From positions 1 to 38,028 of the IMG/VR virus record IMGVR_UViG_3300012668_000254: DNA of 38,028 nt. The stretch is one strand, 5' to 3'. Numbering within the stretch: position 1 is the first letter of the stretch; the number at the start of each line of letters is the position of its first letter. Of the stretch, positions 7,952 to 38,028 are shown one piece after another. The notes beneath the pieces are model-generated. The model was given only the letters and a program-made list of their open reading frames with translations, was not told where the DNA came from and made no database searches. The stretch is from a virus. A program made the position numbers and the translations under genes.

Positions 7952-8167
7952 TTATTTCCCTTTACTTCTTTCTTCAATTTTACAGAGACGCCCATGAAAT
8001 GCACGAGAATCTTTTAAGATCTCTCTATTCCAACCCCTTATTTCAATTTCAAAAGCCTTTATATCTGATCTAATCCAAGAAATTAACCCAACCATTAGTG
8101 CTATTTGAATACTTGCTATAGCTGCAATTGCAGAAATCAAACCCCAATCCAAATTATTCATTTTCAT
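7952..8167 (-). CDS. Small N-terminal-TM protein with C-terminal FHGRLCKIEERSKGK motif (family member 3)
   Basis: TM helix LISAIAAIASIQIALMVGLISW, then ...SRAFHGRLCKIEERSKGK. The ATG abuts the upstream TAA. Confidence 0.7.
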   Translation of the reverse strand: MKMNNLDWGLISAIAAIASIQIALMVGLISWIRSDIKAFEIEIRGWNREILKDSRAFHGRLCKIEERSKGK

Positions 8168-8401
8168 TTATTCCTTTTTTATACATTTACAATCTGGATC
8201 ATGCAAAATATTATCCCCAGCTGAATTCCAAGTATTTCTTAAAAAAATATAAGAATGATCTTCAAATTCTATTTTATATAAATATCTACAAGGTGCTATC
8301 TTTTTAAAATCTACTTTGTCATATTCTGAATCTTCACTCTTGCAAGCTACAAAAAAAACCATCACACCAAATAAAAACATACCAAATAAGAAATCATTCA
8401 T
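8168..8401 (-). CDS. Probable small lipoprotein (o-spanin-like or exclusion-like), Cys-rich
   Basis: Start taken at MNDFLFGMFLFGVMVFFVAC (signal peptide plus lipobox-like FVAC), with further Cys residues (PCRY, DPDCKC). The MEDYV... N-terminal extension in the track is an alternate-frame read of the upstream paralog motif. Confidence 0.55.
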   Translation of the reverse strand: MNDFLFGMFLFGVMVFFVACKSEDSEYDKVDFKKIAPCRYLYKIEFEDHSYIFLRNTWNSAGDNILHDPDCKCIKKE

Positions 8402-8594
8402 GTTTTCTATTTCTTTCCTCTGTTCTACATAATCTTCCATGGAAATCTTTCATTTCGGTTTGTATTTCTCTGATTAGAGTACAAATATCTCTTCTATCGG
8501 CATTTGCTTCTGTTCTTAGCCAAAAAAACATACCGATTGAAATAGCAGCATTTGCTAAAACTATTGTTACAACTTGAGTCCATGTATCTGTCAT
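8394..8594 (-). CDS. Small N-terminal-TM protein with C-terminal MKDFHGRLCRTEER motif (family member 2)
   Basis: AAGGA RBS. TM helix VVTIVLANAAISIGMFFWL, then EIQTEMKDFHGRLCRTEERNRKHE. Confidence 0.7.
   Translation of the reverse strand: MTDTWTQVVTIVLANAAISIGMFFWLRTEANADRRDICTLIREIQTEMKDFHGRLCRTEERNRKHE
8426..8456. repeat. 31-nt exact repeat shared with 28355..28385
   Basis: Same string read directly at both loci. Confidence 0.9.
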
Positions 8595-8606: not shown

Positions 8607-8876
8607 TTATTTCTTTCCTTTACTTCTTTCTTCGATGTCGCAAAGTCTCATCTTAAATTCTATATCTTGTGTAGCAAGTTTAGTGTGAAAATCTTTCATT
8701 TCATCTTTTATGGAATTTAAGATATCTTGAGTGTTTTTTCTATGCTCATTTAAATTTTCTGAAGACTCTTTTCTATATTCATCAGATTTTCTATCACTAT
8801 AGCAAAATAAACCTATGACGGTTCCTAAATTAGCTACTGCAATAGCTACAACAGTTAGCGCTTGTTCTATTTGCAT
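8607..8876 (-). CDS. Small N-terminal-TM protein with a split MKDFH...RLCDIEERSKGKK motif (family member 1)
   Basis: AAGGA RBS. TM helix LTVVAIAVANLGTVIGLFCY. The motif is interrupted by a 12-aa insertion (TKLATQDIEFKM). Confidence 0.7.
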   Translation of the reverse strand: MQIEQALTVVAIAVANLGTVIGLFCYSDRKSDEYRKESSENLNEHRKNTQDILNSIKDEMKDFHTKLATQDIEFKMRLCDIEERSKGKK

Positions 8877-11281: not shown

Positions 11282-11674
11282 ATGCAAAATAGAGCAAAGT
11301 GCAAATTATGTGAATCAATTATTGAAAGTTTTCATTCTCAAGATTATGTAATGTGCAAATGTGGAGAGATTGCAGTGGGTGGTGATGTTGGTGATTACCC
11401 ATGTGCTGCAAAAAACTGGGATAACTTTTTGCGTGTGGATGATGAAGGTAACACAATCATACCTAAAATCAAAAATAAAGATGATGTAAAACCGCTTTAC
11501 ATTGAACCAAATGAAGTGTCAAAACCAACACGTGATGATTTAATCAAGATTCTTGATGATATGGTTAAAAGTATTGAGAAATTACCTCCAGAAGCAATGA
11601 CTACATATGTAAATCAATATGATTTGATGTCATTTTTGATGATTTTGAGTGCAATATTTAAGGCTAAAGAATAA
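11282..11674 (+). CDS. Zinc-ribbon protein (CxxC...CxC), function unknown; contains hairpin repeat copy 1
   Basis: Start taken at MQNRAKCKLCESIIESFHSQDYVMCKCGE. Divergent from terL. Confidence 0.6.
   Translation: MQNRAKCKLCESIIESFHSQDYVMCKCGEIAVGGDVGDYPCAAKNWDNFLRVDDEGNTIIPKIKNKDDVKPLYIEPNEVSKPTRDDLIKILDDMVKSIEKLPPEAMTTYVNQYDLMSFLMILSAIFKAKE
11484..11502 (+). repeat. Hairpin repeat copy 1: ATGTAAA-ACCGC-TTTACAT
   Basis: The 19-nt core is identical to 36268..36286 and to the reverse complement of 23134..23152. Here it lies inside a CDS and encodes VKPLYI. Confidence 0.9.
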
Positions 11675-11805
11675 ATAATTAAATTTTAATTAATTTCAAT
11701 AGATAATCTTGAATTATGCAGCAGTAATCATGGGCCTACTCAACATGTTGAAGATAGAATAAAGTATTATATTGAATTTCTCAACCAGTACGGGTATAAG
11801 TTAAT

Positions 11806-11821
11806 AAAAGAATAAATTTAA
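11806..11821 (+). promoter_or_regulatory. 16-nt motif AAAAGAATAAATTTAA upstream of the portal start; second copy at 14216..14231
   Basis: Exact 16-nt identity, and both copies lie 15-30 nt upstream of a start codon. A partial third copy is at about 11664-11690. Confidence 0.35.
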
Positions 11822-11836
11822 TATTCGGAGGCTAAT

Positions 11837-11962
11837 TTGAGTAGTTTTTATAATGCTCCATGGCAGAATGATCAAGAGCCGAATAGTGGTAATGTTCGTC
11901 ACTTTTTAGACCAATTATATAGTAAATTCATGCCACTTGAACAAAGTCGCTGGAATCAGAGT
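11837..11962 (+). CDS. Portal protein, exon 1 (42 codons, TTG start)
   Basis: GGAGG sits 5 nt upstream of TTG 11837. Encodes (M)SSFYNAPWQNDQEPNSGNVRHFLDQLYSKFMPLEQSRWNQS, then an in-frame TAA that begins the intron. The last six exon nt, cagagt, pair with gctctg (11971-76), with a U-G wobble at the junction. Confidence 0.7.
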
Positions 11963-12180
11963 TAAGAATTGCTCTGAATAAACCTTCTCTGATTGACTCG
12001 GAAGCCCGATGGGGTGACGAGGGGCAAGTTTAAATACAGCCTGAACGACTGAGCGAGAGGGACTCGGAAACGAGTATGCAACAGTCTGAACACTACGGAT
12101 AACACCAAGGTAGTGAGGGAGATTCGAAGAAGTTTCCCCGCTCACAATATATTGTGAGTCATAAAAGTAACAGATCTCGG
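11963..12180 (+). ncRNA. ORF-less group I intron in the portal gene (about 218 nt)
   Basis: GC-rich structured island in AT-rich DNA. Elements seen: P1 (11957-62 / 11971-76); P3 ccttctc (11983-89) / gagaggg (12055-61); R-like gaacgactga; P8 hairpin actcg-GAAA-cgagt (12062-75); S-like acagtctgaac. The 3' tail ...ctcacaatatattgtgagtcataaaagtaacag is shared with the capsid introns. The exact 3' splice site (after G12180 vs G12173) is inferred from the reading frame. Confidence 0.75.
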
Positions 12181-14208
12181 AATATCGATACGCTTTTCTA
12201 TGCCGGCAACCAGTCTTTTATTAATAGGACTTTGAACAACGGACTCGCCACGTCTTATAAAGATTATTATTTCAATTTAGTTCAACAGCCCGTCAATATG
12301 ATCACAGGTTATGAGCGGCAGCATCGTAAAAACTTCTCTTATGTAGCTACAGAAGGTGCTGATCCTTTAACAACTGATCAATATACTACACTTATAACTC
12401 ACGCAGCCAATCAAGGTTGTATTCACGAACAGAAGTCTAAGGCAAAAGAACTTGCTGCTATATCTGGAATGGTTTTAATGCAACCATATCTTGATTATAC
12501 AGGTGATGACCAAGCTCAAGGAACACTTAAAACTAAGATTTGGGAATATAACTCATTTCTAGTTGACCCTTACTTTCGTAATCCTGATATGTCAGATGCT
12601 CAGTTTGTCTGGTGTCAGGAATATATAAGCAAAAGAGAGGCAGAAGATCGATTTCCAGAAAAACTCAAAAATATTATGCCAATGTCTGGTACACCCCAGC
12701 GTTATGGAAACTTCTATTTTTTACCAGAAAACCATAATATGGCTAGAAATGATCTTATGGTCTTGTCATATGTTTGGTATAAATGGAAAAGGAAAAAGAA
12801 ACGTTTATATAGTAGGTCACGTAATCAATTCTATGATTTTGCAGGTGGTGAAGAAAATCTGGAACAAATCTTATATAATATCGAAGACATGGAAGAAGTT
12901 ACTGTTGATGTCCCATGTTGGAAATTAGCAGTTATTCTAAATGAACAACTTATGTATTCAGGTGAAAATCCACTTGGATTCGATGATTGTCCATTTATAC
13001 CATACTATTGGAACTATGATCCACATATAAATCACTTTGACTTACGTGTGAGATCGTTAATTAGAACTATGCGAGATCCGCAATTCCTTTTTAACTATAA
13101 GGTTATCCAAAATAATGATATCGCTAGCGCGACAATCAATGCTGGATGGAAACGTAAAATAGGAGCAGTTGCAAATGAAGACAACCTTAAGAAAGCCGGT
13201 CAAGGATGGGATGTTATCATTAATGAAGGCTATGAACTTACTGACTGTGAAAAAATTATCCCTAGTGCTGTTCCAGAGTCTGATCTTGCCTTGGCACAAC
13301 AAATGGCTGATCTTATATACAACGTTTCTGGGATTAATTTAGAAAATTGGTCTGGACAGCAAGATAAGCAAATATCATCATTGACTATGATGCTAAAACA
13401 AGCAGCCAATTTGATGGTATTTCAAAAGTATTTTGACCAATGGGATTTTTCAGATAAATTGCTAGGGGATAGACTAATCCAAATTGTATTAAACAATTGG
13501 AATGCAGCCAAAGTTCAACTTTATATTGGTGCTGAACCATCACCTCATTTTTTCAGTAAAGTATTTTGTAAGTTTCAGACAATTGTTGAAGAATCTGACC
13601 TTACACCTACTCAGCAGAACTTGCAAGCATCTCAAATGCTAGACATAAATGAAAAATTTCAAAGAGAAGTTTTTCCTCCATCTATGATCATACCAAAATT
13701 AAATATAACTGGAAAAGCAGAAATAATCCAGTTCTTATCAGAACAAGAGCAGCAAATGCAAGCCGCTCAAGGCGAGGAAATGAACTTGAAGCACACTGTA
13801 GAGGAAGTGCGCCTCAAGGAGATGATGGCGAAAATTCACAACCTTCTTTCACAGGCTCGTGAACGTGATTCTCGTTCAGCCTCAAATGCAGGTTTATTTG
13901 AAGAAAGAATGTCAATGGTCTCACGCAACCACTCAATGGCAACAAAAGACAAAATGGCTGCTCTTGCACAGTTGTTAGAAACTATTCAGAAATTCGGAGA
14001 GGTTGAGACATTCTTAAAATCAAACGAATTGGAAAGTGTTAAACTTGATGAAGAAGAACAAGAAAAAACAGCTCGACAAAATGTTGAGACAACAGAAGCT
14101 TCAAAAGAATTTATGGAACAATTAATGGGTACGATGGGACAATCAGGAAGACAACAAAATTCACAACAACAACAACAACCTATGCAAAATAACCAAATGA
14201 TGATATAA
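12181..14208 (+). CDS. Portal protein, exon 2
   Basis: Continues in frame as NIDTLFYAGNQSF... The 675-aa remainder has a Gln-rich acidic tail, and size and position are typical of a portal. The track ORF start at 12154 (GTG) lies inside conserved intron sequence. Confidence 0.7.
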   Translation, partial: NIDTLFYAGNQSFINRTLNNGLATSYKDYYFNLVQQPVNMITGYERQHRKNFSYVATEGADPLTTDQYTTLITHAANQGCIHEQKSKAKELAAISGMVLMQPYLDYTGDDQAQGTLKTKIWEYNSFLVDPYFRNPDMSDAQFVWCQEYISKREAEDRFPEKLKNIMPMSGTPQRYGNFYFLPENHNMARNDLMVLSYVWYKWKRKKKRLYSRSRNQFYDFAGGEENLEQILYNIEDMEEVTVDVPCWKLAVILNEQLMYSGENPLGFDDCPFIPYYWNYDPHINHFDLRVRSLIRTMRDPQFLFNYKVIQNNDIASATINAGWKRKIGAVANEDNLKKAGQGWDVIINEGYELTDCEKIIPSAVPESDLALAQQMADLIYNVSGINLENWSGQQDKQISSLTMMLKQAANLMVFQKYFDQWDFSDKLLGDRLIQIVLNNWNAAKVQLYIGAEPSPHFFSKVFCKFQTIVEESDLTPTQQNLQASQMLDINEKFQREVFPPSMIIPKLNITGKAEIIQFLSEQEQQMQAAQGEEMNLKHTVEEVRLKEMMAKIHNLLSQARERDSRSASNAGLFEERMSMVSRNHSMATKDKMAALAQLLETIQKFGEVETFLKSNELESVKLDEEEQEKTARQNVETTEASKEFMEQLMGTMGQSGRQQNSQQQQQPMQNNQMMI

Positions 14209-22879: not shown

Positions 22880-23696
22880 CATCATCCACCCCAGTTTCAC
22901 TTATATTTTCCATTTCCTTTTCAACAAGTTCTTTTTGATAAGATTTATATCTCGCCAACAAAATATCCTTATGTTTTTGAAATTCCGTTTCAGGCAAGTC
23001 GTCAATCATACTAGCTTTGAATTTATCTTTTAAGTAAGTTTTGAAGTTTATCTGCACTTCTTGAGAGCAACCATTAAGTAATTGGGTTAATTCTATGGCT
23101 TGCTGTGTAGAAATTGTAGTTAAATTTTCTACTATGTAAAGCGGTTTTACATTGGATTTATCAGCTTTATCCGCTTGGTCCATCTCTTCTTCTCCATATA
23201 ATCCGCTCATTTCTGCTGGAAAGCTTTTACGTAAAGCCAAGCATTCAGCACATTTTGATAACATAGCTTTTGGCATTTTTTTCCATAACGGAGAACCTGC
23301 ATTATATTCACTATAACAAGCATTTGCTGAAACCTGATGCCAAGTACCGTCTTTAGTCTGTTTCATCACGTAAGCGGTCGCAGACTCTAAATTTCCATGC
23401 TTATCATAAGTAAACGTCGGTTCTTTACCTGGTGCATAACGACCACTTCTATCAGCAATTAAACGAAACCCGTCAACTGACGTTTGGATTGTTCTTTGAC
23501 CTCCACGAGGAACAGAGTAAATCTGTTTAGCAAAAGGATCTAATCCCGTTCTTTGACAAGCGTAAATGAAGAATTGAAGTTCTTCATTGCTTGCACCTTT
23601 ACAAATGCTATTTTTGATAAGCTCAACTTGTTTCTCATCGAAATGATGGGATTGAACTTGTGGTTGAAATCTCTCTATTTTTGCTAATGCTGTCAT
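22872..23696 (-). CDS. recT: RecT-family single-strand annealing protein; contains hairpin repeat copy 2 in its C-terminal tail
   Basis: QIYSVPRGGQRTIQTSVDGFRLIADRSGRYAPG...ATAYVMKQTKDGTW...MLSKCAECLALRKSFPAE, typical RecT core. Confidence 0.85.
   Translation of the reverse strand: MTALAKIERFQPQVQSHHFDEKQVELIKNSICKGASNEELQFFIYACQRTGLDPFAKQIYSVPRGGQRTIQTSVDGFRLIADRSGRYAPGKEPTFTYDKHGNLESATAYVMKQTKDGTWHQVSANACYSEYNAGSPLWKKMPKAMLSKCAECLALRKSFPAEMSGLYGEEEMDQADKADKSNVKPLYIVENLTTISTQQAIELTQLLNGCSQEVQINFKTYLKDKFKASMIDDLPETEFQKHKDILLARYKSYQKELVEKEMENISETGVDDDA
23134..23152 (-). repeat. Hairpin repeat copy 2 (sense on the minus strand)
   Basis: The reverse complement equals ATGTAAAACCGCTTTACAT. Lies inside recT and encodes VKPLYI. 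Confidence 0.9.
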
Positions 23697-27553: not shown

Positions 27554-27733
27554 ATGCGAATGATTTTTATTGAAGTAATTGTATTTTCATGGCTTTCCAT
27601 AATGCTTACGTCTTGTACGATAAGTTTTCAAAACATTAGTACTCATGGATATGCGAATGATTTAGTCGATGACGAATTTAAGAATGATCCAGATGTCAAA
27701 CCGAGTTTTACGATCCCAGCTACAGTAATGTAA
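27554..27733 (+). CDS. 59-aa lipoprotein
   Basis: GAGG RBS. MRMIFIEVIVFSWLSIMLTSC carries a canonical lipobox L-T-S-C. Below the ORF-track cut-off. Confidence 0.55.
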   Translation: MRMIFIEVIVFSWLSIMLTSCTISFQNISTHGYANDLVDDEFKNDPDVKPSFTIPATVM

Positions 27734-27746
27734 AGCTACTTTACAT
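27728..27746 (+). repeat. Hairpin repeat variant: ATGTAAA-GCTAC-TTTACAT
   Basis: Same 7-bp arms and same 3' flank (TG) as the exact copies, with a different 5-nt loop. Spans the stop codon of the lipoprotein gene. Confidence 0.75.
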
Positions 27747-27762
27747 TGAGATAAGTTAAAAC

Positions 27763-28156: not shown

Positions 28157-28339
28157 CTAGTCTTTTTTCATATTCTTCTTAATTACAATTAAATTTTCAA
28201 TCCTATTATCTAGTGGATCACTATTTATATGATACACATGCTCACTTTGATCTAAAATACGCCCTAAATGTTCTTCCATGATATGTCTATGAATACGTTT
28301 TTTTTGACCATTTATCGTTTTATAGGGGTAACCGTTCAT
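28157..28339 (-). CDS. Small HNH endonuclease
   Basis: RIHRHIMEEHLGR...HVYHINSDPLDNRIENL (H-N-N/H pattern). Start taken at MNGYPYK. The MEDYV extension in the track is an alternate-frame read of the upstream paralog motif. Confidence 0.7.
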   Translation of the reverse strand: MNGYPYKTINGQKKRIHRHIMEEHLGRILDQSEHVYHINSDPLDNRIENLIVIKKNMKKD

Positions 28340-28550
28340 TTTTTGCCTCAATTTTACATAATCTTCCATGGAAATCTTTCATTTCATAGTGCATTGTTTT
28401 TATATCTTCCCTAATCGCATTGTATAAAGATAGATAGAAACCAAACATCGTGAATAAAATCACTAAATTAAACCCCACAATAGATACAATTTGTATGATA
28501 TCTGTTTTTTTTGAGTGATAATAGGATTTGTTTTTATTTTTATTTGACAT
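28320..28550 (-). CDS. Small N-terminal-TM protein with MKDFHGRLCKIEAK motif (family member 5, unlinked copy)
   Basis: TM helix IIQIVSIVGFNLVILFTMFGFYL, then EMKDFHGRLCKIEAKNE. Shares 31 identical nt with member 2. Confidence 0.7.
   Translation of the reverse strand: MSNKNKNKSYYHSKKTDIIQIVSIVGFNLVILFTMFGFYLSLYNAIREDIKTMHYEMKDFHGRLCKIEAKNERLPL
28355..28385. repeat. 31-nt exact repeat shared with 8426..8456
   Basis: tacataatcttccatggaaatctttcatttc occurs at both loci and encodes EMKDFHGRLC on the minus strand. Confidence 0.9.
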
Positions 28551-29626: not shown

Positions 29627-29917
29627 ATGATTACGACAACAGGGAATTTGGGCCCTATGATCTTGCAGTCGCTTGCGCCTGCCATGTTATACGTTCCTAC
29701 TCCTACAATGAACTATATCACTATAGCAGACAAGGTTTCTATGCCTGCAAATGGTGGTACAACTTGCAGGTTTATGCGTCCACGTGCGCTTACTCCTCCA
29801 ACTATTCAACTTGGTAATGCGGGTATTGATCCCCCAGCCCAAGTGCCTCAAAGAGATATCATAGACGCACAAATGGCGTTTTTTGGAACAGGTGAAGAAG
29901 TTTACTCGTATGAAGTT
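29627..29917 (+). CDS. Major capsid protein, exon 1 (3' boundary approximate, 29911-29923)
   Basis: GAGG RBS. MITTTGNLGPMILQSLAPAML...MPANGGTTCRFMRPRALTPPTIQLGNAGIDPPAQVPQRDIIDAQMAFFGTGEEVYSYEV resembles HK97-fold (N4-gp56/T7-gp10-like) capsid N-terminal halves. The frame stops at 29924-26 with the C-terminal half missing. Confidence 0.7.
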
Positions 29918-29952
29918 TCTGCATAATTGATTTGATCATAATATGTAAACCA

Positions 29953-29961
29953 TGTTATAGT
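29953..29961 (+). promoter_or_regulatory. Extended -10-like TGTTATAGT upstream of the intron-1 endonuclease gene
   Basis: Lies 33 nt upstream of ATG 29994, followed by a GGAAGGA RBS. Weak evidence. Confidence 0.3.
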
Positions 29962-29993
29962 ATGACCAGTAAATTTAAAACTGGAAGGATTTC

Positions 29994-30914
29994 ATGGAAA
30001 GAAGTAAGGAAGATTTAATGTATTCATATGCTGCTGGAGCCATAGATGTCGATGGGTCAATTTACTTAGTAAAAGAAAGTAATTTGCATATCCCATTCAT
30101 TCAGTTGGTGAAAAAATTTGGCTCGCTTATCTCTTCATTTAAAAATGATTTTGGTGGTATGACAGGATCTTTAAAAGCAAGACAGCCTCATCATGCACCA
30201 CTTCATTATTGGAGATTAAAAGGTTCTGAAAATTGCAGAGACTTTCTTTTGAAAGTTGTTCAATTTTTAGTCTATAAGAAGGAAAGGGCTGAAGTTTTGT
30301 CTGAATATATTGAAAAGAATCCATTTGTGAGAGGAAAAACACTTAGCGTTGAACAGTTAATTGAGCGTGAAAAGTACCATGTTAAATTAGGCACATTAAA
30401 TGATGAAGCTTATTTAAAAAACATCTCCATGACAGCAAAAACTCATCAGAATACTTATGATGAGGCTTTTTGGTCATATGTAGCGGGTGTTATGGATACT
30501 GACGGTTCATTTTCTGTAAAAAGACAAAAAGGGCATTCTGAAACAAAAAACCTTCGATATATACCCTGCATTCAAATGTCTATGGCATCCTTAAATGTCA
30601 TAAACCACATAAGAAAAAACTGTATATTTGGTACCGTCTGTGTAGTCAAAAATAAAAGTTGCTCACGTGGGTTTCATTATTCCTGGAGTATTGGTAAGAA
30701 GCAGGATTCTGCTGAATTTATCGAAAAGATTCTTCCTTATTTAAAAGAAAAAAAAGATCAAGCAATGATTCTTTTAGACTTTTGCAAAAATGCAGAAAAC
30801 ACAAAATTTTGCAAAGCAGGGATTTCTGAAAAGGAATTAGAGTTTAGAGAATCATGTTATCAAAAAATTGTAGCATTAAATAAGAGAGGCAGCCTGTTGT
30901 GTGAAACTCAATAA
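29994..30914 (+). CDS. Double-motif LAGLIDADG homing endonuclease
   Basis: Two dodecapeptide motifs: YAAGAIDVDGSIYL and YVAGVMDTDGSFSV. 306 aa. Out of frame with the capsid exon. Confidence 0.9.
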   Translation: MERSKEDLMYSYAAGAIDVDGSIYLVKESNLHIPFIQLVKKFGSLISSFKNDFGGMTGSLKARQPHHAPLHYWRLKGSENCRDFLLKVVQFLVYKKERAEVLSEYIEKNPFVRGKTLSVEQLIEREKYHVKLGTLNDEAYLKNISMTAKTHQNTYDEAFWSYVAGVMDTDGSFSVKRQKGHSETKNLRYIPCIQMSMASLNVINHIRKNCIFGTVCVVKNKSCSRGFHYSWSIGKKQDSAEFIEKILPYLKEKKDQAMILLDFCKNAENTKFCKAGISEKELEFRESCYQKIVALNKRGSLLCETQ

Positions 30915-31241
30915 GGTTAGAGATCACATAAAACTTGGCTATATGCTGGAAACCCCTAAAACCTTCGGTACCTAAATGGTGACAATCTGAAGGATATTAC
31001 AATGGGCAATCAGCAGGGAAGACTCGAAAGAGAACCCTCAACGACTACACGCCAGGCACTCTGTAACCGCAGAAGTGAAGATATAGTCTGAACAGTGGTG
31101 AGAGCCATTGAGAGAGGAATAACAAGACTCTCCGCCTAGAAATAGGTCACAAAAGTAACAGTTAGTGCATTATAAATGAGCAAGTTATTTTGCAAGATCA
31201 AGAGGGTGAAGGACTTACGTTCGAAATGTACGCCCTCTTAG

Positions 31242-31310
31242 CTGTGGCGTAAATTGGTACTAGCTTGGGTATCCGAAAGGTTAGCCGTAGCTATGCGTCA
31301 AGCCGAGGAT
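31242..31310 (+). CDS. Major capsid protein, exon 2 (69-nt mini-exon)
   Basis: The only open frame ending at the P1 junction gives LWRKLVLAWVSERLAVAMRQAED, which continues seamlessly into exon 3 (LLILRDYIV...). This fits the conserved capsid pattern L-G-x-x-x-A-x-x-x-D-x-x-x-x-R-D. The 5' boundary could be 31242, 31245 or 31248. Confidence 0.6.
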
Positions 31311-32134
31311 TAACTTTAAGTCCTCGATAAATCTAACCTGATTGACTTGGAAACCCTTATCACCCGTGTGAAAGGGCAACAAGGGGCAAGTGTTTAATTA
31401 GTATTGTAAGGAATCAAAGTGTTCAATATCTGCTTTAAGAAAACCTTTTGCGTTGAGTCTAGACATCTCAACTCTCATGTCTTCTCGAAGGGCGATGATT
31501 TCGGGATCAAGAGGAGCGTGTGCGCCACATCCTTTTTGATTTTCATAGGACTTTCTAAACTCGATCATAATCTCACATTGTCTTTTCTTAAGAACAAGAT
31601 AAGGCAAAACTTGAGTACAAATGTCGAGAAGACGATGACCTTGAACAACCCATTCATAAATCCATCGCTCATGAGTGGAATTTTTCTTAAAAATAGATCG
31701 CTTATGTTTCTTAGATTTATTGAGATTGCCAAAATGCAACTCAATCCAATCAAAAAGTTCCTTTTTTGTATTAGAAATGTTGAGTACAGCTCTAAAGTTT
31801 GGGTTTTGGTATCGGTTATACTTCGCGGGATTAACACGATAAATACACAAAGAGCCTTCACCATCAATAATACCTGCAAGGTAAGCAAGTATGAGAGGTT
31901 TATAAATCTTTTTTTTGTATTCAATTATAGGCATTCACATTCTCCTTTGTTATGTGTGTAGGTGCGTGTATATTGTTGCATAAAACTAATTAAATGTACA
32001 GCCTGATCGACTTAGCGGTTGGAATGTAGAAATACATATGCGAAAGTCAGAACTCGAACTATAAATAAAATTCGAGAGGGAGATCCGAAGAGGTCACCCC
32101 GCTCACAGTATATTGTGAGTCATAAAGTAACAGG
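31311..32134 (+). mobile_element. Group I intron 2 in the capsid gene, with an antisense LAGLIDADG gene in the P6 loop
   Basis: P1: exon gaggat (31305-10) / gtcctc with a U-G at the junction. P3 ctaacc / ggttgg. P6 extended stem tttaattag (31393-401) / ctaattaaa (31986-94). P8 atgta-GAAA-tacat. The 3' tail ccccgctcacagtatattgtgagtcataaagtaacagg is nearly identical to the portal intron. Confidence 0.75.
31398..31934 (-). CDS. Single-motif LAGLIDADG homing endonuclease, encoded antisense to its host intron
   Basis: YLAGIIDGEGSLCI motif, 178 aa. Own AAGGAG RBS on the minus strand. Its stop codon lies inside the P6 stem. Confidence 0.85.
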   Translation of the reverse strand: MPIIEYKKKIYKPLILAYLAGIIDGEGSLCIYRVNPAKYNRYQNPNFRAVLNISNTKKELFDWIELHFGNLNKSKKHKRSIFKKNSTHERWIYEWVVQGHRLLDICTQVLPYLVLKKRQCEIMIEFRKSYENQKGCGAHAPLDPEIIALREDMRVEMSRLNAKGFLKADIEHFDSLQY

Positions 32135-32740
32135 TTGTTAATTTTACGCGATTACATCGTTTCAGCCGCTTCCGAAATTATGGCCGGTGGTGGTTCAAAT
32201 AATGATAATCCAACTAACCTTGGTATCAGTGATTTTAGCTTAGTTGCTACTACTCTTGATACAAATAACGCTTATAAGTTTATGAGTGGTATTGAAGGTA
32301 TGGATAGATTCGGTACAGGTCCTGTTAGATCAGCATATTTTATGCTATCGTCTACAGAATTGCAAACCGATTTTGATGGATTAGTAGGCCAAGGGTTTAA
32401 AAACCAATGGGACTATCCAACAAATGCTAGTGCTTTGCCATCTGAGTATGGTTCTGTATTTAACGTACGTATTTTGACATCGTCAGAGGCTCCTGTAGCT
32501 CGTGGTGCATCTGCTAATGGTCAGGATGTTTACTATAATACCGTTGCTGGTAAGCAAGCATTGACACACGTAAATCAAGATGGATACTCAATGAATCTGA
32601 TTTATCGTGACCCATATTATTCAGGAATGTTGGCTCAAAATGCGACTTTAGCAGTTAAATTTGCTCAAGCTCAAGCTTTGACTCAAGATACAGCGATCAG
32701 AAACCTATTATCAACACGTTTAGCAGTATTAAATTACTAA
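32135..32740 (+). CDS. Major capsid protein, exon 3
   Basis: Has no start codon or RBS of its own; the track's TTG is fortuitous. LLILRDYIVSAASEIMAGGG...VFNVRILTSSEAP...ATLAVKFAQAQALTQDTAIRNLLST resembles C-terminal halves of HK97-fold capsid proteins. Confidence 0.75.
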   Translation: MLILRDYIVSAASEIMAGGGSNNDNPTNLGISDFSLVATTLDTNNAYKFMSGIEGMDRFGTGPVRSAYFMLSSTELQTDFDGLVGQGFKNQWDYPTNASALPSEYGSVFNVRILTSSEAPVARGASANGQDVYYNTVAGKQALTHVNQDGYSMNLIYRDPYYSGMLAQNATLAVKFAQAQALTQDTAIRNLLSTRLAVLNY

Positions 32741-36267: not shown

Positions 36268-36286
36268 ATGTAAAACCGCTTTACAT
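36268..36286 (+). repeat. Hairpin repeat copy 3: ATGTAAAACCGCTTTACAT (intergenic, abutting an RBS)
   Basis: Exact 19-nt copy. It is followed by tGGAGtaataaTTG, the RBS and start of the 36298 gene. Confidence 0.9.
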
Positions 36287-36297
36287 TGGAGTAATAA

Positions 36298-37536: not shown

Positions 37537-38028
37537 TGGGTTTAATAAGTTATATTCGAGATATACCAGATGGTCCTAATAACCCATCTAATGATCAGCC
37601 AAACATGAAATTGAATAATAATGCAATCGAAGATTATGTTGCAGTAGATCATGTTCCTTTTAATGTAAATAATAGCGGTTATCACACCATTATTCATCAA
37701 ACTTTACAAGTTGCAAATCCAGCTCCTATTTCAAATATTGCACAACTTTTTGTTAAAAACGTATCTATCACGAATAGCGCGGGTACTGGAACAGATAACC
37801 AATTATTTTATGAAACTGGTTTAGGAGGAGTATCACAAATTACTGGCAGTCATTCTGCTACAAATGGGTTTTCTTTTATTGCGGGAGTGATTTTACAATG
37901 GGGTATAATTGCTCCTACAAGTGCTGGAACAGTAACTGTATTATTCAATACCGCTCCTAATTTCAATTTTCCCAATGCTTTATTAAATGTTCAAGTCACA
38001 AGACAAAGAACAACTTCATCTGCTGGAA
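37536..38028 (+). CDS. Tail-fibre-like protein, 5' part (continues at position 1 through 187)
   Basis: The ATG overlaps the upstream TAA (ATGTAATGG). MGLISYIRDIPDGPNNPSNDQPNMKLNNNAIEDYVAVDHVPFN...GYHTIIHQ resembles fibre and baseplate N-termini. The ORF runs off the window end. Confidence 0.75.
   Translation, partial: MGLISYIRDIPDGPNNPSNDQPNMKLNNNAIEDYVAVDHVPFNVNNSGYHTIIHQTLQVANPAPISNIAQLFVKNVSITNSAGTGTDNQLFYETGLGGVSQITGSHSATNGFSFIAGVILQWGIIAPTSAGTVTVLFNTAPNFNFPNALLNVQVTRQRTTSSAG
37952..38028. repeat. Second copy of the 77-nt terminal overlap
   Basis: Exact identity to 1-77. A length equal to a common assembler k-mer suggests an assembly overlap rather than a physical terminal repeat. Confidence 0.95.

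Follow-up and report, generated by a model that had tools for sequence, protein, structure and literature searches.

A probable group I intron without an open reading frame in the P22-type portal gene of an uncultivated phage

Introduction

In the uncultivated phage genome IMGVR_UViG_3300012668_000254 of IMG/VR (38,028 nucleotides (nt), analysed over its full length and called the window here), the gene for a P22-type portal protein is interrupted after 42 codons by 218 nt that open with an in-frame stop codon. This locus raises two questions: how a complete portal protein can be made from it, and how the interrupting sequence came to be there. Our analyses suggest that the 218 nt at positions 11963-12180 are very probably a compact group I intron without an open reading frame (ORF), a stranded passenger that would still be competent for splicing. 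This interpretation is supported by the exon junctions of homologues, purifying selection on the exons, covariation of the core including P7, covariation of the internal guide with the insertion site, and a cross-match to the first intron of the capsid gene in the same genome. A sequence-only reading of the window had proposed a group I intron lacking an ORF at this place, and these lines of evidence bear it out. No report of a group I intron in a P22-type portal gene was found in the literature searched.

Joining of two exons restores the portal protein

The portal gene is arranged as follows.

11827-11831 and 11837-11839, + strand: Shine-Dalgarno sequence GGAGG and TTG start codon, read from the sequence; homologues begin at the same residue, several of them with TTG or GTG
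11837-11962, + strand: portal exon 1, 42 codons (LSSFYNAPWQ...EQSRWNQS), last base U11962; protein-identical to the N-terminus of the homologue P0001
11963-12180, + strand: predicted portal intron, exactly 218 nt, with an in-frame TAA at 11963-11965 and a terminal G (omega-G) at 12180
12181-14208, + strand: portal exon 2, 675 codons plus stop

The GGAGG-TTG start, the 42-codon exon ending in EQSRWNQS and the in-frame TAA had been singled out in the sequence-only reading, and all are found where it placed them. When position 11962 is joined to 12181, the result is a protein of 717 amino acids with one terminal stop, which is collinear with uninterrupted portal proteins. Thus, the reading frame is restored precisely. 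The spliced protein matches Pfam P22_portal (E = 4e-47) from residue 37, with an alignment that crosses the junction, and also matches PHROG 156. A search with the portal protein gave 2,433 metagenomic homologues at E <= 1e-10, mainly from contigs of 37-42 kb. More than 100 uninterrupted homologues are continuous over the junction (...RWNQS|NIDTLF..., as RWNQSNIDTLFYAG), in agreement with the RWNQS|NIDTLFYAGNQ junction proposed previously. The closest of them, P0001 (715 amino acids), is 94% identical over 100% of its length.

The gene of P0001 is an intronless portal allele (L001), and it was used as the reference for exon comparisons. L001 reads AGT|AAC, and the window at the same place reads AGT|taag...tcgg|AAT; the insert is preceded by U and its last base is G. 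Because L001 has AGT|AAC at the DNA level, the boundaries of the insert are unable to slide, and the insert is exactly 11963-12180. The intronless allele thereby fixes both the length of 218 nt and the 3' boundary at G12180 that had been claimed. The joined-exon RNA is predicted to read ...AATCAGAGT|AATATCGAT..., and the predicted junction-spanning peptide would be SRWNQSNIDTLF.

Exon 1 of the window and L001 differ by 35 nt in 41 codons; 23 codons have changed synonymously and 0 non-synonymously. In exon 2, the stretch ahead of any ATG (codons 1-39) carries 12 synonymous and 0 non-synonymous changes. Since both exon parts show only synonymous change, both are translated as one protein, and therefore the 218 nt must be removed.

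Downstream of the insert, the frame is open from 12154 to 14208. The GTG at 12154 lies inside the P9.2 hairpin described below and has no Shine-Dalgarno sequence, and the first in-frame ATG, at 12298, is 39 codons into conserved portal sequence. The view that the downstream ORF lacks a plausible start of its own is thus upheld. The automatic gene call (P0003), a portal protein of 636 amino acids from this ATG, starts 81 residues late.

The insert has the fold of a group I intron

The elements assigned to the insert and its flanks are listed below; the pair counts refer to the alignment of 106 relatives described in the next section.

11956-11977, + strand: P1, formed by UCAGAGU 11956-11962 of the 5' exon and the guide GCUCUGA 11971-11977, with U11962.G11971 where splicing would occur
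11963-11970, + strand: P1 loop with the P10 guide, AUU 11968-11970 paired with AAU 12181-12183, 3 base pairs (bp)
between P1 and P3, + strand: J1/3, AAUAAA; P2 absent
11983-11989 / 12055-12061, + strand: P3, enclosing P4, P5 and P6; compensatory changes in 7/7 pairs
11997-12000 / 12018-12021, + strand: P4, 100% paired among 106 sequences
12005-12007 / 12012-12014, + strand: P5, compensatory changes in 3/3 pairs
12022-12025 / 12039-12042, + strand: P6, compensatory changes in 3/4 pairs
12047-12051 / 12082-12086, + strand: P7, GACUG / CAGUC, a pseudoknot crossing P3 and enclosing P8
12062-12066 / 12071-12075, + strand: P8 with GAAA loop, 5/5 pairs covary
12092-12096 / 12110-12114, + strand: P9, in the peripheral 3' domain (12092-12173), 5/5 pairs covary
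about 12117-12124 / 12131-12138, + strand: P9.1 with loop CGAAGA, predicted by folding
12141-12148 / 12151-12158, + strand: P9.2, predicted by folding
12167-12173, + strand: conserved GUAACAG motif; the intron tail reads ...AAAAGUAACAGAUCUCGG

An unconstrained minimum free energy (MFE) fold recovers P1, P3, P4, P5, P6, P8, P9.1 and P9.2 (-71.8 kcal/mol, z = -3.2). The P1 helix cagagt/gctctg with its U-G pair, P3 and the GAAA-capped P8, which had all been noticed from the sequence, are among the helices reproduced in this way. In P9.1 and P9.2, complementarity is retained across the family despite different sequences. The portal intron has no P2 and no helix between P3' and P8. In P7, 96 and 97 of 99 distinct sequences retain the pairs G12047-C12086 and A12048-U12085, respectively, and C12046 is a possible bulged base. 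A G-C pair next to an A-U pair is expected at the guanosine-binding site, and these two pairs may correspond to the G264-C311 site of Tetrahymena. The intron has a G+C content of 46%, and the whole genome 33%. No + strand ORF of at least 30 amino acids lies wholly within it. A minus-strand ORF at 11915-12145 (76 amino acids) was considered as a hidden endonuclease and rejected, as it has no Pfam match.

One candidate role for the GUAACAG motif was discarded. A P9.0-like pairing in the MFE fold, GUCUG 12084-12088 with CAGAU 12171-12175, overlaps P7, and in that register, examined by eye, variants with AGUCCG and GUAACAA do not compensate.

From this structure, we infer the following course of catalysis. 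The end of exon 1 would pair with the internal guide, forming P1 with U11962.G11971. The P3-P9 core with its P3/P7 pseudoknot would bind free guanosine, which would attack after U11962. The freed exon 1 would then attack after G12180, whereby ...RWNQS would be joined to NIDTLF... and the 717-amino-acid P22-type portal protein restored. The TAA directly 3' of the 5' splice site probably keeps ribosomes out of the ribozyme.

The core covaries in a family that the Rfam model misses

The window is a complete, circularly permuted phage genome of 37,951 bp, since bases 1-77 are repeated at 37952-38028. No relative was detected among 50,697 deposited phage records by blastn and tblastn. A genome scan for host inference pointed to five metagenome-assembled bins of unrelated phyla, including an archaeon, and the binning was thus uninformative. 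Relatives of the portal intron were gathered through portal proteins that seemed to be N-terminally truncated, and by scanning IMG/VR with a 15-nt core pattern. A covariance model of the intron core, R1, was built from a seed of seven sequences, with P7 omitted from the structure.

With R1, over 100 copies were detected at E < 1e-9, and contigs often have two to four of them; the window portal intron scores 166 bits. In the core including the P7 pseudoknot, 98.1% of the cells pair among 106 relatives from viral metagenomes, compared with 72.9% after shuffling and 40-47% with slid partners. Compensatory changes on both sides were observed in 27/33 core pairs of this alignment, and the covariation score was 0.66 vs 0.19. 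For P7, 99% of the cells pair, and the fifth pair alternates (AU 72, GC 22, UA 3). As P7 was left out of the R1 structure, its pairing and alternation count as independent support.

The pairing with the 5' exon was also analysed. A P1 of at least 7 bp with U.G, abutting J1/3, is present in 57/99 family copies and in 39/495 shuffles. The guide sequence differs with the insertion site across the family. The window and the related locus L003 have the guide gctctg after ...cagagt, and L006 and L009 have gtcgat(at) after ...atcgat. The portal intron of L006 and L009 has a nearly identical core and is inserted 9 nt downstream of the window/L003 site. The terminal G is common to the window portal intron, L003, L006, L009, L008 and both capsid introns of the window. 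In 83/101 copies, GUAACAG or GUAACAA stands ahead of a short tail with G as its last base; the tail is mostly 4-5 nt, and 7 nt in the portal copy. In the window, GUAACAG occurs at 12167-12173, 31155-31161 and 32127-32133, and it lies upstream of the true 3' splice sites, as in about 80% of the family.

The sequence-only reading had suggested a scan with a group I covariance model. When the whole window was searched with RF00028 at the gathering threshold, only capsid intron 1 was detected (30848-31110, 79.2 bits). A permissive search of 11700-12400 gave no match to the portal insert even at E <= 10, and about 35 relatives in 16 loci gave no match at the gathering score. The link to the Rfam model is indirect, through capsid intron 1 only. 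R1 matches the Rfam-positive capsid intron 1, a copy outside its seed, over the full length (34.7 bits, E = 2e-5), with P3, P4, P5, P6, the GACUA/UAGUC strands of P7, and P9 all in register. Thus, the portal insert is a group I intron of a lineage missed by RF00028, and we attribute the missing matches to limited sensitivity of the model; in our view, they do not count against the group I fold. The portal intron shares the core topology of RF00028, and its R-like ..GAACGACUGAGCG.. and S-like ..CAACAGUCUGAAC align through capsid intron 1 to the P7/P3' and P7' segments, although the portal copy and its close relatives are undetected by the model.

The capsid gene carries paralogous introns

The capsid gene of the window has the following parts; the exon limits come from L091, a homologue whose capsid gene is uninterrupted at the insert positions, and from translation.

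to 29893, + strand: capsid exon 1
29894-31165, + strand: capsid intron 1, a more distant paralogue with a LAGLIDADG ORF at 29994-30914 (Pfam LAGLIDADG_1); the only copy that Rfam recognises
31166-31207, + strand: capsid exon 2
31208-31256, + strand: capsid mini-insert, 49 nt, frame-breaking and without a ribozyme core
31257-31310, + strand: capsid exon 3, 18 codons
31311-32137, + strand: true paralogous capsid intron, P1 gaggat/gtcctc, ending ...aaagtaacagGTTG; R1 matches both halves (67.7 and 32 bits)
from 32138, + strand: capsid exon 4

L091 is continuous at these positions (...FFGTG|CIINEQVILQDQEG|VLAWVSERLAVAMRQAEDL|ILRDY...), and the four exons were verified by translating the window gene. 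P1, J1/3 and P3 of the intron at 31311-32137 (gaggat/gtcctc, gataaa, tctaacc) are laid out as in the portal intron. L6 of this capsid intron contains a single-motif LAGLIDADG-like ORF, LAYLAGIIDGEGS, on the minus strand at 31398-31934. Homology links it to the C-terminal half of the LAGLIDADG ORF in intron 1 (E = 3e-10); no Pfam match to it was found at E <= 0.01. The corresponding position in the portal copy is a 13-nt loop.

The 3' end of the portal intron had been described as nearly identical to that of a 'capsid intron 2'. The similarity is real and covers 51 nt (portal 12115-12165 vs capsid 32076-32126, 90% identical), but this 'intron 2' is a composite of the 49-nt mini-insert, the 18-codon exon and the true intron at 31311-32137. 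Likewise, the tail aaagtaacag had been taken as shared by all three introns: AAAGTAACAG indeed occurs at 12164, 31152 and 32124 (three occurrences vs 0.06 expected by chance), but the 3' splice sites of the capsid introns lie 4 nt further on.

The 3' domain of the portal intron is nearest to the window's own capsid intron, and its core is nearest (92-97%) to capsid introns of other genomes. As the 3' domain and the core have different nearest relatives, the family is a mosaic, with parts exchanged between genomes. Related loci were counted for the distribution of inserts (80 capsid loci for capsid inserts, and 79 portal loci for portal inserts and HNH genes), and the portal loci are not phylogenetically independent. 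Inserts of at least 190 nt are present in 26/80 capsid loci, at several different sites.

Inserts in the portal gene are associated with an upstream HNH gene

One further feature lies directly upstream of the portal gene.

11699-11815, + strand: HNH_3 stub, left from a free-standing homing-endonuclease gene that has lost its catalytic part; the final 38 codons and the stop are retained

L003 and L009 have intact genes of 229-231 amino acids at this position, and the stub is 72% identical to their C-termini (tblastn, E = 6e-12). Pfam HNH_3 is matched by the L003 protein, and intact HNH_3 genes lie upstream of the portal gene in L003, L009 and L008. An intact free-standing HNH gene adjoins the interrupted portal gene in L003, L009/L129, L173, L195 and L205, whereas the window has only the stub. 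A full intron is present in the 5' region of six of the 79 portal loci, and an insert of 47-53 nt in five. An HNH gene or fragment was found upstream in 11/11 insert-bearing loci and in 6/68 uninterrupted ones (Fisher p = 1.4e-9, with the loci being related). The introns of the window and L003 are 90-100% identical and the flanking exons about 62-83%. This fits recent lateral transfer, strong constraint, or both.

A trans ('collaborative') homing scheme has been described for two phage systems (PMC3984707). We lean slightly towards the interpretation that the association of intron and HNH gene in these phages would reflect such homing, rather than the loss of an intron-encoded endonuclease. 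We infer the target of the HNH enzyme and the direction of transfer as follows. The free-standing HNH enzyme encoded upstream most likely cuts intron-less portal alleles near the intron site, and the HNH gene and the intron would be copied together into the broken genome. The intron would render its carrier immune to the cut. In the window, deletion of the HNH gene to a 38-codon stub would have left the intron stranded. Since the HNH gene is decayed, the intron would be immobile unless a co-infecting relative supplies the enzyme. The window is a decayed example of such a pair, not a working one. The free-standing HNH gene, now a stub, would explain the 'empty' portal copy better than the endonuclease loss or reverse splicing suggested by the sequence-only reading.

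Three observations speak against this homing scheme. No extended co-conversion tract was seen in the flanking exons in the identity profile of the window vs L003. Six related loci have an HNH gene but no insert. In the window itself, the HNH gene is truncated, and the cleavage site is only putative.

The alternative that comes nearest is that the intron spread by reverse splicing or by transposition within the genome from the capsid gene, that its ORF was lost together with an intron-encoded endonuclease, and that the HNH gene ahead of the portal gene has no connection with it. Outside the orthologues, the 3' domain is matched best by the window's own capsid intron, whose L6 contains a LAGLIDADG ORF exactly where the portal copy has its short loop, and members of the family are found at many sites in capsid and portal genes. 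To this extent, the intragenomic spread proposed earlier has a basis. However, the portal core is far closer to capsid introns of other genomes than to the window's own, which has diverged beyond the reach of blastn-short. Unrelated guides are used at the two portal sites, which are 9 nt apart, and simple reverse splicing with an existing guide does not explain a move between them. Moreover, the presence of HNH is tightly linked to inserts in the 5' region of the portal gene. We therefore regard within-genome spread as unlikely, and collaborative homing as the better account.

The HNH genes upstream of uninterrupted portal genes are found in L184 (IMGVR_UViG_3300027722_000036), L139, L162, L180, L183 and L207. 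The target region of L184 encodes RWNNSNID (..AACAATTCC..) instead of RWNQSNID, a variant that may make the site resistant to cleavage. The window has another HNH-like coding segment on the minus strand at 28190-28300 (E about 1e-4 to 3e-6 in tblastn with the HNH proteins associated with portal genes). In addition, direct repeats of 45-48 nt occur at 8409-8456 and 28338-28385 (90% identical), 7956-8000 and 8614-8658. They are near small minus-strand ORFs (8168-8440 and 8607-8876), which may be paralogous small endonuclease genes.

Competence of the portal intron for splicing

Several points weigh against a functional group I intron in the portal gene. The support is entirely comparative, and RF00028 matches neither the portal copy (E <= 10) nor about 35 relatives (gathering threshold). 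P10 has only 3 bp, P2 is absent, and no subgroup is assignable. The 3' splice site lies 7 nt past GUAACAG, where relatives mostly have 4-5 nt.

An alternative is a decayed, non-splicing intron in a defective genome, with the phage surviving only as a passenger or by co-infection. In its favour, the genome is an assembly from an uncultured metagenome, the neighbouring HNH gene is degraded, and there is no Rfam match. However, every core helix is intact and the near-invariant positions of the family are retained. L003 and L004, from different samples, have nearly the same intron at this portal site, and the flanking exons show synonymous change only. In addition, the contig closes on itself as a complete genome. 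Decay is thus very improbable.

The absence of any RNA splicing, with a 42-amino-acid peptide and a protein started inside exon 2, or with recoding or bypassing of the 218 nt, would agree with the gene call from ATG 12298 and with the bypass-like short hairpin inserts at the neighbouring site in relatives, but it is scarcely credible, because the part of exon 2 that precedes any ATG (codons 1-39) shows perfect conservation of the protein, the GTG at 12154 is buried in a hairpin without a Shine-Dalgarno sequence, 218 nt is far above the known 50-nt bypass gap (10.1101/2022.08.31.505936), and the insert has a complete covarying ribozyme fold. A splicing-competent group I intron remains the interpretation that we prefer.

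Mini-inserts and hairpin inserts beside the introns

The 49-nt mini-insert in the capsid gene of the window has ten counterparts of 32-67 nt in capsid and portal genes of relatives. They are found in the capsid genes of L214, L215, L220, L226, L227, L228, L238, L251, L253 and L279, and two are in the portal gene of L008; identical pairs were analysed once. All 11 mini-inserts are preceded by U, end in G, have a length that is never a multiple of three, and lack a catalytic core. All of them contain a contiguous two-part guide, which forms 7-8 bp including U.G with the end of the upstream exon (P1-like) and 3-6 bp with the start of the downstream exon (P10-like). In the window copy, the guide GUAC|GCCCUCUU pairs with the downstream exon start (GUAC) and with the upstream exon end AAGAGGGU, with U.G. 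Both pairings compensate between loci (CCAGU/ACUGG vs CCUGU/ACAGG; GCCGAAG/CUUCGGU vs GCCAAAA/UUUUGGU).

All 11 mini-inserts lie 12-35 codons from a full-size insert, which in the capsid loci is always in the same gene, and the full-size inserts examined are introns of the portal-intron family. The micro-exons flanking the window mini-insert differ from L091 by 17 synonymous and 0 non-synonymous changes, which indicates purifying selection. In L008 (GCA_040383985.1, JAWVHF010001071.1; 2400-3060), the portal gene has two full family introns, after ..LDNL and ..NID, and two mini-inserts, of 32 nt after cctccgt and 47 nt after cagcct. This gives four interruptions in about 150 coding bases (the first ~50 portal codons).

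Tentatively, and with less confidence than for collaborative homing, the mini-inserts could be core-less, non-autonomous group I mini-introns that are spliced by the cores of this intron family. Engineered ribozymes are able to excise internal segments in trans (PMC2532722), and non-self-splicing 'degenerate' group I introns are known from lichen rDNA (PMC8527467). Should the core come from an adjacent intron, or from one that has already been excised, the mini-inserts would be a natural counterpart of engineered trans-excision-splicing. For these U...G mini-inserts, though not for the portal EQSR|WNQS hairpin inserts described below, translational bypassing was rejected: in none of them does the insert end with a codon that matches the take-off codon. 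At the capsid FFG|TGC site, a third helix, formed by the 3' part of the mini-insert with the downstream exon, is consistent, and sequence changes there retain the pairing. We do not claim this helix, as it is not significant in single loci and is absent from the window copy.

A different type of insert occurs in the portal gene of relatives only, at EQSR|WNQS, 12 nt upstream of the window intron site (L005 2869-2921, L130, L149, L159, L163 and L199). In these hairpin inserts of 47-53 nt, a long covarying hairpin begins directly after a CGG codon and gives way to a tail rich in A/U. Two codons on, there is a stop in 3/5, and the final codon is CGG or CGA in 3/5. An HNH gene or remnant is upstream in all.

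Other features of the window

A 21-nt palindromic element, ATGTAAA-NNNNNN-TTTACATTG, is present in four copies (11484-11504, 23134-23154, 27728-27748 and 36268-36288), two of which are identical. It may be a regulatory hairpin or an operator.

Discussion

The arrangement at the portal gene can be compared with known systems. Examples of collaborative homing are the psbA intron of cyanophage S-PM2 with F-CphI and the system studied by Bonocora & Shub (reviewed in PMC3984707). The portal locus shares with them an ORF-less intron in a highly conserved gene, an adjoining free-standing endonuclease gene and the linked occurrence of the two. Unlike in those examples, the endonuclease is of the HNH_3 type and lies upstream of the interrupted gene, the host gene encodes a P22-type portal, and the window retains only the 38-codon stub.

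The gene orf142 of phage Twort is described as containing three related group I introns (Landthaler & Shub 1999, as cited in PMC6669764). As in Twort orf142 and other late-gene introns of phages (Lactobacillus phage JCL1032), several related introns occur per phage or late gene in the window, with very short exons between them. Unlike Twort and JCL1032, the window belongs to an uncultivated lineage with no match in the deposited phage records, its portal intron is compact without P2, and its capsid gene also has a core-less mini-insert.

In phage T4, MobA accompanies the 50-nt bypass cassette of gene 60, and such cassettes have so far been found only in topoisomerase genes, of myoviruses (10.1101/2022.08.31.505936). 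The portal hairpin inserts of the relatives resemble this pair in size and in the adjoining HNH gene. However, they are in a portal gene and absent from the window, and bypassing is only putative for them.

Taken by itself, the portal insert is an ordinary kind of element, and it belongs to a large intron family missed by the standard RNA database. The wider interest is in the invisibility of this family to RF00028, its linkage to HNH genes and the mini-inserts beside its paralogues. Since RF00028 is blind to the family, capsid and portal genes of a widespread group of uncultivated phages are mis-annotated as truncated or split. If the mini-inserts are spliced, group I ribozymes would act on neighbouring substrates in nature. 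Within 21 nt of a conserved portal segment, related genomes either lack an insert or have an ORF-less intron (at either of two sites), a hairpin insert of about 50 nt, or several of these together. The inserts are nearly always found with the same upstream HNH gene. These states provide a natural comparative series on the long-standing question of how group I introns that are mobile come into being, with which the idea can be tested that a free-standing endonuclease encounters an 'immunising' insert at a shared target before the two become fused.

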